From Nitrosopumilaceae archaeon (GTDB lineage Archaea > Thermoproteota > Nitrososphaeria > Nitrososphaerales > Nitrosopumilaceae), in contig JBQTHX010000034.1 in assembly GCA_052389415.1 (NCBI GenBank), positions 13,904-77,903 of the forward strand: a DNA stretch of 64,000 bases. Reading direction: 5' to 3'. Below are positions 12,558-19,371 of the stretch, in pieces; the stretch's first letter is position 1, and every line of letters starts with the position of its first letter. The notes beneath the pieces are model-generated. The model was given only the letters and a program-made list of their open reading frames with translations, did no database searches and had not been told where the DNA came from. The position numbers were made by a program, and so were the translations under genes.

Positions 12558-15215
12558 CTATCCAGATGTACAGCCGCTGTATCCACATTCTATGCAGAGG
12601 TTACATCCTTCTGCAAAGACTAGATTATTTTTGCACGTTGGACACAACCTTTCTTCTAGTTGTTCTTGTGTGAGTTGGTTTTGTTGTATTCTTACTTCAC
12701 TGTCAGGAATTTTGATTTGTAATGCTTTTTCAATCTGTGTTTTCAGATATGGATTAGTAACACCCTTTGCTATAAATTCAGTTAGATATGCACTAGGAAC
12801 TACTTGGAATGTTTTTTGTACATTGTCACCAGTCATATGAAGAACTTGCTCATGTCTTGAACCATCTCTGAATACTGTAATTCCTTTTAATCCAAGTTCA
12901 TGTGCTAACAAATATGATGCTTTAACATCATCTGCAGTCACATCATTAGGCATGTTGATTGTTTTGGCTATTGCGTTTCCAATCCATCTTTGCCATACAG
13001 CTTGTGCCATCAGGTGGTCAGTCCAGTGGATGTCCATAGCTGTCACAAAAATTTTCTGTATCCATTCAGGAATTTCTGGGATTCCTTTTACTGATCCATA
13101 ATTGTTTGCAATCTTTTCCAGTATTTGATCATTGTATAATCCATGTTCTTTTAAAACAGATTCGAATATCTTGTTAGTGTAGAAAAATCTACCAACTGTA
13201 ACACGTTTTTCAAATACAAGTGCAAACATGGGTTCCATTCCATTGGAACAATCAGCTATCATAGAAAGAGTTCCTGTAGGAGCTACTGTAGATGTTAACA
13301 CATTTCTTATTCCGTGTTTTTGGATTTTTTCAATTAGGGCGTCCCAATCATAATAGTGTGCACTTTTTGGTTTTTCATAATAACCTCCAATTGGAATTTT
13401 TCCTTCAGGGAACTCTGTTTTCTCGCAAAGGGGGAATGCACCTCGTGTTTTTGCTAAAGCCACACTTTCTTCCATTGAATAATAGCTCAAAGCCTCTGCT
13501 AATTTTTCTTGGAATTCATAACCTTCTCGTGAATTATACGGGATTCGCAGTTTGAACAGAAGATCAGCAACACCCATTACACCCAGTCCTATTCTACGGG
13601 AATCTTTTGAGGCCTTGTCGATTTCGGGTATTGGGTAATTATTTGTGTCTATTACATCATCTAAGAATCTTGTAGTCTTTCTGATTACTTCTTCATATCG
13701 TTGCCAATCAAACTCATATTGTCCATCAGCTTTTCTTTTCACAAAGTTTGAGAGATTGATAGATCCAAGATTACATGACTCGTACGGATACAAGCTTTGT
13801 TCTCCACATGGATTAGTTGCTCGCAATGGTCCACCACGTGCTTTAGCAAATACATTATACTTGTTTATCTGATCAAAAAAGATCAGTCCAGGTTCAGCAC
13901 TCTTCCAAGCTGACAGCGCTATTAGATCAAGAAGTTGATGTGCGTTTACTTCACGCACTGGACTCTTGTCACGTGGACTTCGCAGAATATATTTTCCATC
14001 AGACGAATTTACAAGTGAGCTCCAAAAGTCTTCCCACACTCCTACACTCACATTAAAGTTTTCTAAAACTCCTGGTTTTGTTTTTGCAGTGATAAATTTT
14101 TCAATATCAGGATGCCATGCTTCAATTATTCCCATGTTTGCACCTCTGCGTTTTCCTCCCTGTTTAACAACTTCTGTTACAGTATTGATAATATTCATGA
14201 AAGAGACAGGCCCCGAGGCTACACCAGATGTAGATGCAACCATGTCGCCTTCTTCTCTAAGATCAGAGTAATTGATACCAACTCCTCCTCCAGATTTGAA
14301 GATCAAAGCCGCATCTGAAGATGATTTCATTATTTGTTCCATATCATCAGGCATTGCAAGAACAAAGCATGCAGATAGTTGTCCTAGTCTTCCCCCAGCA
14401 TTCATCATGGTAGGAGAATTTGGTAGAAAGTCTTGAGATATCATCATATCATAGTATTCTGTGATTCTTTCCGCATAGTTATCAAATTGTTTTGCTGCAA
14501 GCATGGTGAGGAATTCCTTTATACTTACTTTCATCTGGCCTTGTTTGGCAAGATCAATGTAATGAGAGATCAGTCCTCTAAAGTGCCACTTGTTAAGATG
14601 ATATTTACCTATTTTGAATTTGTAATTAAAATCATCAAGTTTATCAAGATATTTTTTGGCATCTTCTATGTTCTGGGTTCTTCCACCATTAACTTCGAAA
14701 ACAGAATTATCCTTTAGAACATCTGCAAGTCCAACTAATACTGCAACGCGTTCAAACATCTCTCCTGGACTTTCTATTATTTCACCTTTGTTGTTACGAA
14801 ACAGATATCGTGATGCTAAGACTCGCAAACAATTAATGTCAAATTTCTTTGATACATCGTCAAGAAGTTTTGCATTTAGAATTTTCATCTTTTCTTCTCG
14901 AATCTTTCTTCGTTCGTGTCTGTAAAGTATGTAGGATTTCGCGATTTCACCTAATCCTTCATCTATTAGAATGGATTCCACCATATCTTGAACGTCTTCT
15001 ACGCTTGGTGGAGAAGAGGCTGAAAATCCATGTTTTAAGAGCCTCATCATAACTCCTTCAGCAAGCTTATCTGCCAAACTATGATCTGGTCTTCCACAAG
15101 CGACTAGTGCTTTGTATATTGCATTTGAGATCTTGTCTTTCTGAAAATTTAATACTCGCCCATCTCTTTTTTTTACTTCAATAATCGAGTTTTCTATCTG
15201 TGAAAAGTCAGTCAA
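12558..15215 (-). CDS. nrdJ: Adenosylcobalamin-dependent class II ribonucleotide reductase with N-terminal ATP cone
   Basis: VKKRDGR ATP cone, PNSPT, LSACFV, TNPCGEQ, CNLGS, APTGT and C-terminal Cys cluster; no intein seen. Confidence 0.93.
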   Translation of the reverse strand: MTDFSQIENSIIEVKKRDGRVLNFQKDKISNAIYKALVACGRPDHSLADKLAEGVMMRLLKHGFSASSPPSVEDVQDMVESILIDEGLGEIAKSYILYRHERRKIREEKMKILNAKLLDDVSKKFDINCLRVLASRYLFRNNKGEIIESPGEMFERVAVLVGLADVLKDNSVFEVNGGRTQNIEDAKKYLDKLDDFNYKFKIGKYHLNKWHFRGLISHYIDLAKQGQMKVSIKEFLTMLAAKQFDNYAERITEYYDMMISQDFLPNSPTMMNAGGRLGQLSACFVLAMPDDMEQIMKSSSDAALIFKSGGGVGINYSDLREEGDMVASTSGVASGPVSFMNIINTVTEVVKQGGKRRGANMGIIEAWHPDIEKFITAKTKPGVLENFNVSVGVWEDFWSSLVNSSDGKYILRSPRDKSPVREVNAHQLLDLIALSAWKSAEPGLIFFDQINKYNVFAKARGGPLRATNPCGEQSLYPYESCNLGSINLSNFVKRKADGQYEFDWQRYEEVIRKTTRFLDDVIDTNNYPIPEIDKASKDSRRIGLGVMGVADLLFKLRIPYNSREGYEFQEKLAEALSYYSMEESVALAKTRGAFPLCEKTEFPEGKIPIGGYYEKPKSAHYYDWDALIEKIQKHGIRNVLTSTVAPTGTLSMIADCSNGMEPMFALVFEKRVTVGRFFYTNKIFESVLKEHGLYNDQILEKIANNYGSVKGIPEIPEWIQKIFVTAMDIHWTDHLMAQAVWQRWIGNAIAKTINMPNDVTADDVKASYLLAHELGLKGITVFRDGSRHEQVLHMTGDNVQKTFQVVPSAYLTEFIAKGVTNPYLKTQIEKALQIKIPDSEVRIQQNQLTQEQLEERLCPTCKNNLVFAEGCNLCIECGYSGCTSG

Positions 15216-15278
15216 ACGTCTCCCGGCAACAGTAAGAAAAGAGAGTATAATAAAGATTGAGGCGAAAAAAAATTTCCT

Positions 15279-15302
15279 AAAATTGATTTTTGGATCAATT
15301 TT
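15279..15302. promoter_or_regulatory. Perfect 9-bp inverted repeat AAAATTGAT-N6-ATCAATTTT upstream of nrdJ
   Basis: Read directly; lies about 25 nt upstream of a TATA-like TTTATTAT on the minus strand (~15247-15254). Confidence 0.5.
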
Positions 15303-15446
15303 GTTGACATCATTTCATTTTGAATAAAAGAATAGATCTTTTCAAAATAAAAATGAAAAAAATATTATTATAAATTTCAGAAAAATATGATCGCATTTTC
15401 TAAATTTTTAGAAAGATCTATTATTAATTATGGAGAGCAAATATTA

Positions 15447-17555
15447 TCATTGCGCTTGGGCTAAAATGTATGGTGATTTACAGGTAGGACACTTGTCTGT
15501 AATTTTCTCATCTTTTAGGCCACAGTTACCACATATAGATACTTTTCTGATCGGTTTGAAAGTTCCTACAAGTTCGCTTGCTTTTTCTATTGCTTTTTTG
15601 ATTCCTGCAGTATCCATTTCATTAGGGATTTTTAGTTGGATCAAAAATCCACCGTTTAACATCTTCGAAATATGATTGCACTCTATTATCTTGTCCGTCT
15701 TTTGGGTCATTCCGTCTATTTCTGAAGCAATTAACGTCATACCAGCGCTATAGGCATCTCCTTCTACAAATTGATGAATGGACATCTTACCGTATTTTTC
15801 GCCGTCTAGGGTAGAAAATCTTGTGGAAGCATCACTTTCAGTCATAGATATAGTAACGTTATCGCCCATTTCTTTTCCCTTCTTGGCTGCAACCTCAATG
15901 GCTGTTTCTAGCACTTTAGCCATTATTTCGTTTCCGGCCTTGTTGTTTTCATAGCCAAGTATACCCAACACGGCCTCCTTCAAACCTATTAGATTAACCA
16001 CAAGAGTAACAGATCCTTTTTGCATGTACTGTGTATTACTAGCAAGAATAGGATTTAGTCCTCGTCTAGTAAGATCGGAGATGTCTTTCTTTCTAAGTGA
16101 CATCGCAGCAAGCGCAGGCTTCATTAAGATTGCAAGACGCGCTCTAAAGTAGGTTTCATCTTTATTGGATTCAAATGCTAGCCTTGGCAGGTTTATTGAA
16201 AGTGACTGTAAGTTAATTGATGTGCCAGTGTTTTTTGTATCTCCACGTAACAAGCCATGATTAGAGACATGACCTTTGGAGAAAATTGTTCTACCTCCTA
16301 ATGCTATAATCTCGGAAAGTATCTCAGAAAACTCGGAAAGTTTTCCTTTTTCATAATCAATTATCAATCCAATATGTGGGATTGGCGTTGATTTGAGGTA
16401 TTTCTTATATCCAGCAAGCAAAGCCCCAATGATCTTAGAGTCAGAGCCAAGAGGAATCCTAAATGATGCTAGAGTTGAGTTTTGGTTATATTTTGGCGCA
16501 GCCGATGTTATTGCAAACGCATTTGCTATTTTTTCTTCAACTTCAGAAAGAATTTTTGAAAATTTTTGCAAAACTGTTACCAATCCATCTATAATTACTT
16601 CTTGTGAGGCCTCTTTTAGGAGCAAAGCCGTAAGTAATGAAAGTGATGTCATAAGATCATCTAGAGTCTTAATCGGAGGCATCCTAGTCACGCCAAGGAA
16701 TTTTCCACGCAGATCTATTCCATCTTCAAGAAGTTCTTTAATATTTACAAATATCGTATCTGGTAAGAGTGACCAGATTCCAGTGTTTGTCAAATGTATA
16801 TCTCCTGACAGATGTGAATCTGCCACATCCTTTGGCAAGGTGTTAAGGACAAGATTTTCACCAAAAACTGTCTGACCAGTCTTGAAAAGTAACCCTTCTA
16901 CACCATTATGAATACCATCGACGTTTGTTATCATTTCATGAATATCATACGCAGGTAGACCCAATCTAGCTAACTTGTGCCTATATTCCTCATGGCCATG
17001 CTCCAAAAGAACGGCATTAACCATTTCACGTATGAGCGAAGATGTAAGATAAGTCGTTTGAAATTTGTATATGCGATTTTCTACTTCTTCTGTTATTTTT
17101 TGAGCCAGTTCCAATGGAAGGCTGCCTTCACGCACAAGGGATTGTATTATCTTGTGAGAGTTGAATTCCTCTATTGCTTCATGTGACGTTCGTACATACA
17201 TTTTTCCACTCTCAATAATAGAGCGTTCCTCGATCTGCCTTGCAAGACTTAGAACAAGTTTTCCAAGATTTGTTATAGTATATCGTCTTTCAGATTTATT
17301 TAAAGCAACGAGAGATTGCCTTAATAGTTTTCTAAGATGATAAGCAAATTTACCACTTTCCTTTTTTGATTTAAAGCCAGCAAGCGATTTTAGTTCAGAA
17401 TACGTAAGTGGTCCTTTTGAGTTTAAAATACGAAGTATGTCTATCCTGTTTGGACTTGCCATAACAGAAAAGATCATTCTTACTCGCTTTGATGCAGATT
17501 GTAAAATTCCTCCCCGTTTTTGATCTCCAAAATCCTCACTTAGCTCCATAGGCAT
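15447..17555 (-). CDS. Winged-helix + ATP-cone + degenerate NrdD (class III RNR) fusion; putative regulator
   Basis: ArsR-like wHTH, ATP cone (YVRTSHEAIEEFNSHKIIQSL), NrdD-like LPKDVADSHLSGDIH and SINLPRLA, C-terminal CGNC..CPTC; no glycyl-radical RxxGY. Confidence 0.75.
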   Translation of the reverse strand: MPMELSEDFGDQKRGGILQSASKRVRMIFSVMASPNRIDILRILNSKGPLTYSELKSLAGFKSKKESGKFAYHLRKLLRQSLVALNKSERRYTITNLGKLVLSLARQIEERSIIESGKMYVRTSHEAIEEFNSHKIIQSLVREGSLPLELAQKITEEVENRIYKFQTTYLTSSLIREMVNAVLLEHGHEEYRHKLARLGLPAYDIHEMITNVDGIHNGVEGLLFKTGQTVFGENLVLNTLPKDVADSHLSGDIHLTNTGIWSLLPDTIFVNIKELLEDGIDLRGKFLGVTRMPPIKTLDDLMTSLSLLTALLLKEASQEVIIDGLVTVLQKFSKILSEVEEKIANAFAITSAAPKYNQNSTLASFRIPLGSDSKIIGALLAGYKKYLKSTPIPHIGLIIDYEKGKLSEFSEILSEIIALGGRTIFSKGHVSNHGLLRGDTKNTGTSINLQSLSINLPRLAFESNKDETYFRARLAILMKPALAAMSLRKKDISDLTRRGLNPILASNTQYMQKGSVTLVVNLIGLKEAVLGILGYENNKAGNEIMAKVLETAIEVAAKKGKEMGDNVTISMTESDASTRFSTLDGEKYGKMSIHQFVEGDAYSAGMTLIASEIDGMTQKTDKIIECNHISKMLNGGFLIQLKIPNEMDTAGIKKAIEKASELVGTFKPIRKVSICGNCGLKDEKITDKCPTCKSPYILAQAQ

Positions 17556-17616
17556 GTCTAGATTGCATCAGTAAATAAGATTTGTGACGAAAAAGATCAT
17601 ATAGTTACATTTTTAA

Positions 17617-17778
17617 TCAGTTTTTTTGTACATCTACAGAAAATTCTGCTGTAGAAAGAGTTTGCCCACAAGATGGACACTTGTTATTATATGGTCTTGT
17701 AATTTCTCGAATGGATTTTAGCATTCGCATATTTGCTATTTTTGCACCACATTTACCACAAACAACATCAACTGACAT
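17617..17778 (-). CDS. Small Zn-ribbon protein, 53 aa (not in ORF track)
   Basis: Manual translation MSVDVVCGKCGAKI..NNKCPSCGQTLSTAEFSVDVQKN; TATA-like element upstream. Confidence 0.75.
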   Translation of the reverse strand: MSVDVVCGKCGAKIANMRMLKSIREITRPYNNKCPSCGQTLSTAEFSVDVQKN

Positions 17779-17849: not shown

Positions 17850-18215
17850 TTACAGTTTTTCTAACAACATACCACGCTCGTCATAACCAGCAATTTTGGT
17901 TTTTGCTCCAAGAGGGAGATCAGAGGGCGAAGTAATATTTTGCATAAAGCCAGACACTTGAAGATCTGCCTGATCTAATTTTATTACAACCCAAGCATAT
18001 GGAGTGTATTTTTCATATCCTGCTGGAGGAACTGTAATTATAGTATAAGTAACAACCTTGCCCTTTCCTTCTATTAAGACATTTTCGAATCCCTTATTTC
18101 CACAATTTTGGCAAAAATAGGTCGTTGCAAGATGCAAATAGCCACATTTTGTGCATTTCCGGGCAAGAATCTTGCCTGCTTTTGCATTATTAACGAATTC
18201 CTCTTTTGCCGACAA
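17850..18215 (-). CDS. DUF35 Zn-ribbon/OB-fold protein (thiolase partner)
   Basis: KCTKCG..FCQNCG and GKVVTYTII..PY motifs; TTG 18215 just after thiolase stop. Confidence 0.88.
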   Translation of the reverse strand: MSAKEEFVNNAKAGKILARKCTKCGYLHLATTYFCQNCGNKGFENVLIEGKGKVVTYTIITVPPAGYEKYTPYAWVVIKLDQADLQVSGFMQNITSPSDLPLGAKTKIAGYDERGMLLEKL

Positions 18216-18216
18216 G

Positions 18217-19371
18217 TTATACACTTTTGAAGATATGTACTGCACAGCTTGCGCCTGTTGCCCCGAAGTTGTGGGTTAGACCAATTTTTGCGTCTTTTAC
18301 TGTTCTTTCGCCGGCCTTTCCAGTCAGCTGATCAAACACTTCAACGACCTGACCAATTCCAGTTGCGCCAATTGGATGTCCTTTTGATTTTAGTCCTCCA
18401 GATGGATTAATAGATATTTCACCGTTTAATTTTGTCATTCCTTGTCGCACTGCTTCAACTGCTTTTCCTTTTTCAAAAAATCCCAAGTCTTCAGTATCAA
18501 CTAGTTCAGCAATTGTAAAGCAGTCGTGTACTTCTGCAAAGTCAACATCTTTTGGTGTAATTCCTGCCATTTTGTATGCAGCCTGTGCTGCAATCTTTGT
18601 GCTTGGTATAGTGGTAATATGCTCACGTCCTTGCAGTGCAGCAGGTGATCCACCCCTGCCTGATCCAATCACTTGAATGTAATTTTTTGAATGTTCTTTT
18701 GCAAATTTTTCACTACACAAGATTACTGCACTTGCACCATCAGAGAAGGGACAACAATCATATAATTTAAGCGGACTAGCGACAACTGCAGATTTCATAA
18801 CATCATCAACCGTTATTTTTTTTCTTAAATGTGCTTTTGGATTAGCAAAACCATTTTCATGATTTTTTACTGCAACCATTGCAAGGTCTTCTTCAGTTGC
18901 TTTAAATTCTGCAAGATAAGCTCTGGCCATTGATGCAAATAATCCTGGAAATGATGCACCGGCTCCTCCTTCATAAAAAAAATCAGAACAATAAGAAAAA
19001 TATGTTGTAGTCCATTCTGTTCCAGTATGAGTTACCTTTTCAACACCTGTAGCTAAAACTGCGTCATAAAATCCAGCAGCCACATTAGCATAGGCTTCTC
19101 TGAATGAAACAGAACCACTTCCACAAGCAGATTCAATTGATAATGATGGCACCTCAGAAATTCCAAGGTTGCTCATTATAACAGGGCCCAAGTGAACTTG
19201 TTTGTCTGCGATACCAAAAACGTTTGAAATGTATCCTGCTTGAAGTTCCTTTGGTTCAATACCAGCGCTCTCAATAGCTTCGACAGATGCCTGAACGGCA
19301 ATGTCTGTAATACTATCTTGTAATTTTCCATACTTCGTGCTTCCTGCACCAATAACGCAGACCTTTTCCAC
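18217..19371 (-). CDS. Acetyl-CoA C-acetyltransferase (archaeal thiolase)
   Basis: ESACGSG, EVHDCF, KGHPIGATG and HNFG motifs. Confidence 0.92.
   Translation of the reverse strand: MEKVCVIGAGSTKYGKLQDSITDIAVQASVEAIESAGIEPKELQAGYISNVFGIADKQVHLGPVIMSNLGISEVPSLSIESACGSGSVSFREAYANVAAGFYDAVLATGVEKVTHTGTEWTTTYFSYCSDFFYEGGAGASFPGLFASMARAYLAEFKATEEDLAMVAVKNHENGFANPKAHLRKKITVDDVMKSAVVASPLKLYDCCPFSDGASAVILCSEKFAKEHSKNYIQVIGSGRGGSPAALQGREHITTIPSTKIAAQAAYKMAGITPKDVDFAEVHDCFTIAELVDTEDLGFFEKGKAVEAVRQGMTKLNGEISINPSGGLKSKGHPIGATGIGQVVEVFDQLTGKAGERTVKDAKIGLTHNFGATGASCAVHIFKSV

Follow-up and report, generated by a model that had tools for sequence, protein, structure and literature searches.

A catalytically dead anaerobic ribonucleotide reductase fused to a winged helix is a candidate nucleotide-sensing regulator of ribonucleotide reductase genes in archaea

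Why would an aerobic ammonia oxidiser keep a gene that resembles an anaerobic ribonucleotide reductase, directly upstream of an intact reductase of another class? The question is raised by a 64,000-nucleotide stretch of a Nitrosopumilaceae archaeon genome (assembly GCA_052389415.1, contig JBQTHX010000034.1, positions 13,904 to 77,903 of the forward strand; hereafter the window, whose numbering is used throughout). The gene encodes a 702-residue protein in which a winged helix-turn-helix (wHTH) and an ATP cone precede a pseudo-NrdD barrel, and which we label REG. An earlier interpretation made from the letters of the window (the sequence-only reading) had taken REG for a class III ribonucleotide reductase (RNR; NrdD) that has lost its chemistry and serves as a nucleotide-sensing transcription factor for the neighbouring nrdJ. 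That central idea stands; its account of an NrdD retired by an aerobe and its claim of a retained specificity site do not. We consider it probable that REG is a dimeric, ATP/dATP-sensing transcription factor, controlled by its cone, for the adjacent RNR gene, and in this sense an archaeal NrdR analogue with a dead NrdD as its scaffold. The fold, domain order, loss of catalytic residues, conservation, single origin and adjacency to two RNR classes were computed; from these we infer DNA binding, nucleotide binding, the target site and the sign of regulation.

REG, its modules and its presumed target occupy the following positions.

15447–17555, minus strand: REG gene, 702 residues (open reading frame (ORF) and translation, Pfam domains, AlphaFold2 model, NrdD fold)
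17250–17474, minus strand: ArsR-type wHTH, residues 28–102 (HTH_20 and DUF7347 above their cut-offs)
16983–17201, minus strand: ATP cone, residues 119–191 (PF03477 match)
15546–16949, minus strand: NrdD-fold barrel without catalytic residues, residues ~203–670 (profile against the PDB and VIA-align)
15480–15533, minus strand: C-terminal zinc ribbon, CxxC-N10-CxxC, residues 675–692 (REG sequence; no glycyl-radical loop behind it)
12558–15215, minus strand: nrdJ, a B12-dependent class II RNR with its own canonical ATP cone, the presumed target (TIGR02504 and domain matches)

The order of modules in REG is thus wHTH, cone, barrel and zinc ribbon, and all motifs quoted in the sequence-only reading, like the ORF itself, are present in the translation of 15447–17555. 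In a Pfam scan, HTH_20 matched residues 32–84 (32.9 bits, cut-off 27), DUF7347 residues 28–102 (41.3 bits, cut-off 27.6) and NRDD residues 417–694 (92.4 bits, cut-off 26.2), and the cone matched PF03477 over residues 119–191 (35.4 bits, gathering score 25.8). The NCBIfam equivalog model for NrdD, TIGR02487, was not reached; REG scores 84.3 bits, a quarter of the cut-off of 326.35. The wHTH resembles those of the ArsR/SmtB group in matching HTH_20, and the REG family profile finds the winged-helix chains of NolR, HlyU and ArsR in the PDB at E values of 1.4e-4 to 1e-2. Unlike in those proteins, the wHTH is a small part of a 702-residue chain, and the score on the ArsR/SmtB metalloregulator subfamily model NF033788 is 23.4 bits, below the cut-off of 55. 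No metal-sensing module was identified in the REG wHTH.

The fold was examined with an AlphaFold2 model built from a 107-row alignment (A1), which holds REG, 99 representatives of at least 560 residues (among 150 listed) and seven closer relatives. The model has a predicted local distance difference test score (pLDDT) of 92.5 and a predicted template modelling score of 0.85. In a Foldseek search with this model, the 26 best rows listed (ranks 1–36) are all NrdD chains, led by 9d3x at E 4.4e-20, and class I RNRs come next at about 1e-6. VIA-align superposed the model on T4 NrdD (1h7b) with a Z score of 29.3 and a root-mean-square deviation of 2.9 Å over 440 residues, and on the NrdD of S. thermophilus (StNrdD) with a Z score of 29.5 over a range that starts at residue 117 and so includes the cone. 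Across NrdD structures Z scores run from 24 to 29.5, as compared to 18–20 for class I/II RNRs and other glycyl-radical enzymes, so that the ten-stranded barrel of REG is of the NrdD type. The REG family profile agrees with the structural comparison, with E values against NrdD sequences of the PDB from 2e-42 (9d3x) to 7.5e-33 (1h78).

Two copies of residues 205–702 were also predicted as a homodimer, with a median interaction prediction score from aligned errors (ipSAE) of 0.76 against 0.00 for the best control, at least 94% contact agreement between runs and a partner pLDDT of at least 83. This ipSAE mark is attained by 20/30 proteins whose solved structures are pairs and by 1/23 whose structures are single chains. 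The predicted interface is formed by helices around residues 212–231, 281–315 and 341–356. Since NrdD dimers have already been solved, the pass may reflect likeness to those structures and may come from the model's memory of them.

In an effort to determine what remains of the reductase chemistry, we compared 33 REG-family rows with 18 genuine NrdDs encoded by neighbouring genes in Bathyarchaeia. Three segments of the barrel are of particular interest.

16755–16757, minus strand: Thr267, at the first conserved NrdD cysteine (the NCC motif), in a column that is invariant Cys in the 18 genuine NrdDs
16257–16262, minus strand: Asn432-His433, at the Cys-Cys of the finger loop, which is invariant in the 18 genuine NrdDs
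16794–16814, minus strand: HxxGxxH motif, residues 248–254 (HLSGDIH), retained in the alignment

Of 85 positions that are invariant in the genuine NrdDs, REG retains 26. The flap (ENxN) that follows the cone is lost, as are the three catalytic cysteines, the PAE loop and the Gly-Tyr pair of the radical loop. Reading the printed alignment by eye, we saw no Cys at the first-cysteine segment among its 107 family rows. PMC12662201 gives Cys400 of StNrdD as the thiyl-radical residue and Gly697 as the glycyl-radical residue; Cys400 falls in an insert state of the REG family profile alignment, which stops before Gly697. Nor does REG have counterparts of Gly672 and Tyr673 (numbering of the genuine NrdD of locus L052), which belong to a loop that reads RVTGY in 14, RVVGY in three and RITGY in one of the 18 Bathyarchaeial neighbours. 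The cysteines of REG are limited to residues 626, 675, 678, 689 and 692, and the chain ends 10 residues past the last of them. The sequence-only reading was thus right that the glycyl loop is absent and that a single cysteine, Cys626, lies outside the ribbon.

A different set of residues is kept. His248 and Gly251 of the HxxGxxH motif are present in 33/33 REG rows and His254 in 28/33, all three being invariant in the genuine NrdDs; NLP (455–457), GLxE (524–527), Asp584, Tyr602, GG (635–636) and all four ribbon cysteines are retained as well. The apparent specificity-site glutamines and the loop-2 GxQ, both invariant in the genuine NrdDs, are not kept. The proposal that REG preserves the allosteric sites of NrdD therefore holds for the well-conserved ATP cone and fails for the specificity site and loop 2. 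A mapping of specificity-site residues of P. copri NrdD (PMC11226230) onto REG was set aside, as the numbering appeared offset by 4 and Glu290 was mismatched. Among long-form members of the family (see below), P0172 is the sole row with a GCR finger loop (SSGCRLA, read by eye) and P0222 has an RRLGY tail; no row was seen to keep both a finger-loop cysteine and an RxxGY tail. By this comparison, REG is a catalytically dead NrdD in which every residue of the radical chemistry is lost. Combined with the Z score of 29.3 on the T4 NrdD fold, the loss of the three cysteines, NxN flap and glycine loop bears out the description of REG as a dead NrdD fused to a wHTH.

Relative to a working NrdD, REG has the same fold, the same order of cone, linker, barrel and zinc ribbon, and, as described below, a place in a sister clade to the Bathyarchaeial enzymes. 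It differs in the absence of the three cysteines, the NxN flap, the glycyl-radical domain and a partner NrdG, in its additional N-terminal wHTH and in a score far below the equivalog cut-off.

Conservation within the family was assessed over A1. The wHTH is covered in 105/107 rows, the cone in 107/107 and the C-terminal CxxC...CxxC ribbon in 81/107. Mean identity to REG over the 106 other rows is 56% in the cone and 52% in the wHTH, as compared to 22–38% in segments of the barrel, a pattern that is the opposite of what the alignment of an enzyme would be expected to give. The 26 rows that do not have the C-terminal CxxC...CxxC were noted, and a divergent sub-group of ~640–670 residues, to which P0127, P0129 and P0130 and the copies at loci L148, L152 and L153 belong, is without the ribbon.

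REG is a core gene of its family. It was found in 60/61 sampled genomes of the window's family and in all 52 of the high-quality ones. Of 8000 candidates scored in a homologue search, 4185 match at E <= 1e-3; the 120 homologues listed are 74–100% identical and come from organisms named Nitrosopumilaceae, Nitrosotalea and Thaumarchaeota. Their source names include "anaerobic ribonucleoside-triphosphate reductase", "ribonucleoside-triphosphate reductase (formate)" and "ArsR family transcriptional regulator", and the first of these is the mislabelling that the sequence-only reading had anticipated from annotation pipelines. An exhaustive search of representatives returned 1149 proteins at E <= 1e-3, of which 181 also pass E <= 1e-30. 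With A1 as the query, 263/301 genomes across the phylum match at E <= 1e-10, many with two or three matches, the weakest of which may be genuine NrdDs or bare winged helices. Full-text searches of the main text of openly available articles found no description of this family, and term look-ups in two papers on RNR evolution (PMC9669993, PMC4390871) turned up neither winged-helix fusions nor archaeal proteins of this kind.

In the RNR inventory of the host, nrdJ is the only RNR found besides the dead REG. The genome (1.43 Mb, 94 contigs) is 94% complete, so that absences are to be read as not found at that completeness. NrdJ is intact (736.6 bits on TIGR02504, cut-off 400) and lies downstream of REG in the same orientation, across a spacer of 231 bp (15216–15446), as had been claimed. 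Genome-wide there is one NRDD match, which is REG itself, one class I/II RNR barrel, in nrdJ, and two ATP cones, in NrdJ and REG. No NrdG scored above its cut-off (best 50 bits against 131, and 39 against 126), and the best radical S-adenosylmethionine (SAM) ORF from that search scored highest on QueE models. NrdR was likewise not found, with no TIGR00244 match at E <= 0.01. The genome search for nrdG and nrdR that the sequence-only reading had called for thus returned neither, and amoA is present.

The pairing of REG with nrdJ is conserved. Thirty loci of the window's family were collected, and a co-oriented nrdJ stands downstream, 182–438 bp away, in 29/29 with enough flank, the thirtieth being cut by a contig end. 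Further genomes of the same family include an adjacent REG–nrdJ pair (L154), a pair with a 1.1-kb gap (L156) and a divergent pair with a common 767-bp spacer (L155). The synteny with nrdJ proposed earlier as a check therefore holds within this family, and the link extends in relatives to nrdD.

This extension was traced in a longer form of REG, ~740–790 residues, carried by metagenome-assembled genomes of Bathyarchaeia and Hecatellales. A 17-row alignment of long forms gave 80 such loci, from records named Bathyarchaeia/Bathyarchaeota, Hecatellales, Thermoproteota or uncultured archaeon. At least one downstream ORF of 150 residues or more was available in 62 of the 80, and the first two ORFs were considered. 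A genuine co-oriented nrdD is downstream in 25/62 (480–650 bits on PF13597 for full-length copies), a class II RNR in 5/62, and pyrB or pyrI in a further eight. In L052 the nrdD is followed by a radical-SAM gene (nrdG), and in L146 REG is followed by nrdD and nrdG, with an oppositely oriented pyrB next. For 20 other families of the phylum, each represented by one genome and scored on its best match, the gene downstream was nrdD in three and nrdJ in one; pyrB adjoined REG directly in six, and nine had none of these. In L128, from the same sample, pyrB lies ~2 kb downstream. Where nrdD occurs, pyrB is behind it, and pyrB is convergent with REG; because of this arrangement, adjacency to pyrB may mostly be a remnant left after nrdD loss. 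The link of REG to RNR genes of two classes argues for control of RNR expression over partnership with one enzyme.

Two features of these loci were recorded in passing. L145 (G063) has two tandem REG-like genes followed by pyrB. In many Bathyarchaeial loci (L056–L060, L071–L118) the 400–900 bp between REG and nrdD are conserved and coding-like, with a stop that overlaps or abuts the nrdD start, and probably hold a small gene.

The long form also provides a view of how REG arose. Its tail past the zinc ribbon is colinear with the glycyl-radical loop of the neighbouring NrdDs, which read WSRVTGYYQ..SGW where the long form typically reads YGRxxxxYxPLxxW; the radical glycine is substituted in most long-form rows, and a few, such as P0222, retain RxxGY. 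In a maximum-likelihood tree of 51 rows (33 REG, 18 NrdD), rooted on three NrdDs with canonical cones, all 33 REG rows group in one clade (Shimodaira–Hasegawa-like approximate likelihood ratio test support 100), whose sister group is the remaining 15 NrdDs. The protein of the window falls in a single clade made up of the 16 tail-less rows (100), which branches from among the long forms on a long stem. The NrdD subtype sister to REG has the same unusual cone start.

As the tail-less clade is nested in dead long forms, the tree places the gain of the wHTH and catalytic death before the ammonia oxidisers, with the tail lost later. The evolutionary route is clear: nrdD was duplicated, the upstream copy gained a winged helix, and the chemistry was lost stepwise. 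From the alignment, the steps appear as a radical tail that is mutated but present in Bathyarchaeia and deleted in the ammonia oxidisers. Along this route the presumed regulator was kept while its presumed target enzyme was swapped for one of another RNR class. The suggestion that an aerobic archaeon retired its NrdD into a sensor does not survive this history, as the dead wHTH form already stands in anaerobic Bathyarchaeia beside live nrdD and nrdG, and the tail-less form is nested there.

Where might such a protein bind? The intergenic sequences on both sides of REG hold the following candidate elements.

15289–15310, minus strand: 22-bp box GTGTnAA-N5-TTGAnCyAAA, candidate operator, better conserved than any other block 5' of the promoter in 29 spacers
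15246–15254, minus strand: TATA-like box of nrdJ, TTTATTATA, preceded by a conserved T-rich/GCC block; putative promoter, recognised from sequence
15279–15302, no strand assigned: perfect inverted repeat of two 9-bp arms 6 bp apart, which overlaps the box at its 3' half (repeat search)
17571–17579, minus strand: TATA-like box of REG, 16–24 nt before the ATG; read from the letters, with a presumed promoter function

Four conserved blocks were found in an alignment of 29 REG–nrdJ spacers. The 22-bp box ends, at its 3' side, 34 nt upstream of the nrdJ TATA box; besides these two, the blocks are a TAC and a GGGGAG just 5' of the nrdJ start codon. A weight matrix of the box scores 27.0 bits at the site in the window. 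The next-best match in the genome, at 21.4 bits, is within a coding region, as are all four of the weaker matches inspected. The 9-bp inverted repeat is genus-specific, being limited to the three closest loci (L012–L014). The sequence GTCAyAAATCTTAwTTAC surrounds the TATA-like box of REG itself and was recognised by eye throughout the 30 printed loci; the spacing between the TATA-like box and the ATG suggests that the REG mRNA is leaderless.

Repeats of other kinds were observed in relatives. Just upstream of nrdD or nrdJ, the loci L050, L094, L046, L047, L062, L070 and L095 carry repeats, inverted or direct, whose half-sites are of the TATACA or TCTACA type; the one in L094 is a perfect inverted repeat with 8-bp arms 5 bp apart. 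These Bathyarchaeial repeats are possible operators of the long-form proteins and are unlike the Nitrosopumilaceae box; an operator common to both groups was considered and rejected, as repeats precede the RNR gene in both but their half-sites differ. Arrays of GATCCAAA-like repeats are found upstream of the REG promoter in L027, L028 and L037, with a perfect 8-bp palindrome pair in L027, and in the window's genus the nrdJ box has the GATCCAAA core of these arrays in its right half.

We propose the following working model. REG would dimerise through its NrdD-type helical interface, and the dimer would set its pair of ArsR-type winged helices against a conserved site that lies 5' of the B recognition element (BRE) and TATA box of the neighbouring RNR gene, here nrdJ. 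On binding ATP or dATP, the cone would move the winged helices or alter the oligomeric state, in the manner of the NrdD and NrdR cones, with the barrel probably serving as a dimerisation scaffold and signal transmitter. Transcription of the RNR gene would in this way track the dATP/ATP ratio. Because the candidate site is upstream of the TATA box, we slightly favour activation that depends on ATP and is lifted by dATP over classical repression.

Several observations weigh against this model or limit what can be drawn from it. The weight matrix of the box was built from the same nrdJ upstream sites, so that its uniqueness in the genome is partly circular and a weak test. The box is not a clean palindrome across genera, and none was found upstream of REG itself, where the best score in 30 loci is at most 9.4 bits. 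Three divergent copies in the same family (L148, L152 and L153) have no nrdJ within the stretch fetched. Outside the family, adjacency to an RNR gene is not universal, occurring in four of the 20 one-per-family genomes as compared to six others that adjoin pyrB. Finally, the cone of REG starts with VRTS, and the canonical cones aligned here start with KKRD or RKRDG. The VRTS or VRRSDG start is also found in genuine neighbouring Bathyarchaeial NrdDs (for example those of L050, L053 and L094); given this shared variant in live enzymes and the conservation of the cone, nucleotide binding by REG is presumed.

The alternative that best withstands the data keeps REG as a DNA-binding regulator and changes either its signal, to redox state, metal or cobalamin sensed through the zinc ribbon or barrel, or its scope, to a wider regulon of nucleotide metabolism or replication in which nrdJ is merely a neighbour. 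ArsR-family proteins are typically metal sensors, two to three copies per genome are common in the phylum and would fit diversified targets, and pyrB or pyrI adjoins REG in 8/62 Bathyarchaeial loci, with pyrB doing so in 6/20 one-per-family genomes. Against this, the cone is the best-conserved module and is common to the neighbouring live NrdDs, no second strong match to the box was found in the genome, and the convergent position of pyrB, behind nrdD where nrdD is present, may make that adjacency a leftover of nrdD loss. We therefore regard this alternative as unlikely, although not negligibly so.

REG might instead act on proteins, as a regulatory or chaperone-like partner of an RNR or as a dNTP-binding buffer whose wHTH makes protein contacts. 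The predicted dimer suggests that the NrdD interface is retained, and a dead paralogue could in principle pair with a live NrdD in Bathyarchaeia. The ammonia oxidisers, however, keep REG with no NrdD to pair with, and the enzyme encoded next door, NrdJ, is of a different class; the wHTH, moreover, is the second most conserved part of the protein, is present in 105/107 rows and matches the DNA-binding ArsR, HlyU and NolR structures. A role of this kind appears distinctly improbable.

That REG is still an enzyme, either a reductase that receives its radical residues in trans or an enzyme for some other nucleotide reaction, as the label of anaerobic RNR implies, draws on the HxxGxxH, NLP, GLxE and GG motifs kept in the barrel, one of which aligns, with an uncertain numbering offset, near a motif of P. 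copri NrdD that has been discussed in connection with the binding of substrate phosphate, and is very hard to reconcile with the loss of the three cysteines, flap, PAE loop and radical Gly-Tyr, the failure to find an activase in an aerobic host with amoA, and a TIGR02487 score at a quarter of the cut-off.

The regulator of the adjacent RNR gene proposed above may also be part of a broader history. In this more ambitious version, which we offer tentatively as a possibility, REG would represent an ancient, phylum-wide family of RNR regulators, which would have begun with a tandem duplication of nrdD and been carried from nrdD to nrdJ as lineages turned aerobic. Its dead barrel would still bind nucleotide in the vestigial pocket for substrate or effector, so that dATP/ATP would be read at the cone and a second signal at the barrel, and the family would be the archaeal counterpart of NrdR.

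Two known regulators invite comparison. NrdR is a bacterial protein of ~150 residues that binds DNA through its N-terminal zinc ribbon. REG resembles it in the coupling of an ATP cone to a DNA-binding module, in linkage to RNR genes, in having a zinc ribbon and in a presumed ATP/dATP read-out; it differs in its length of 702 residues, its ArsR-type wHTH, a whole dead NrdD barrel and a ribbon that is C-terminal, as in NrdD. REG is in these terms an NrdR analogue that stands outside the NrdR family. Bacillus subtilis PurR combines a wHTH with an inactive phosphoribosyltransferase-like sensor domain, and by the same logic REG would join a winged helix to a copy of a pathway enzyme that has lost its activity and serves as ligand sensor for genes of the pathway. 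The two differ in fold, pathway and domain of life, and no homology is claimed.

The genes on the other side of REG are of less consequence here. Directly upstream is an ORF of 51 residues with two CxxC pairs (17623–17778, minus strand), which has no NCBIfam match; its DNA is conserved in most loci of the family, where the upstream sequences share its C-terminal codons. Beyond it, at 17850–19371 (minus strand), a thiolase-like gene of 384 residues overlaps a partner of 131 residues of zinc-ribbon/oligonucleotide-binding (OB) type with a weak match to BbsA (27.7 bits, cut-off 250), an ordinary pair unrelated to REG.

To our knowledge, the transcriptional control of archaeal RNR genes is an open question, NrdR being bacterial. 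The principle suggested here is known from two sides, as regulators of RNR genes that carry a cone and as dead enzymes that serve as sensors of transcription factors. The analysis also corrects an annotation trap, in that the label of anaerobic RNR could pass as evidence for anaerobic DNA synthesis in aerobic nitrifiers. The REG family, a core gene of marine and soil ammonia oxidisers that is widespread in Bathyarchaeia, is a concrete candidate for the control of archaeal RNR genes.

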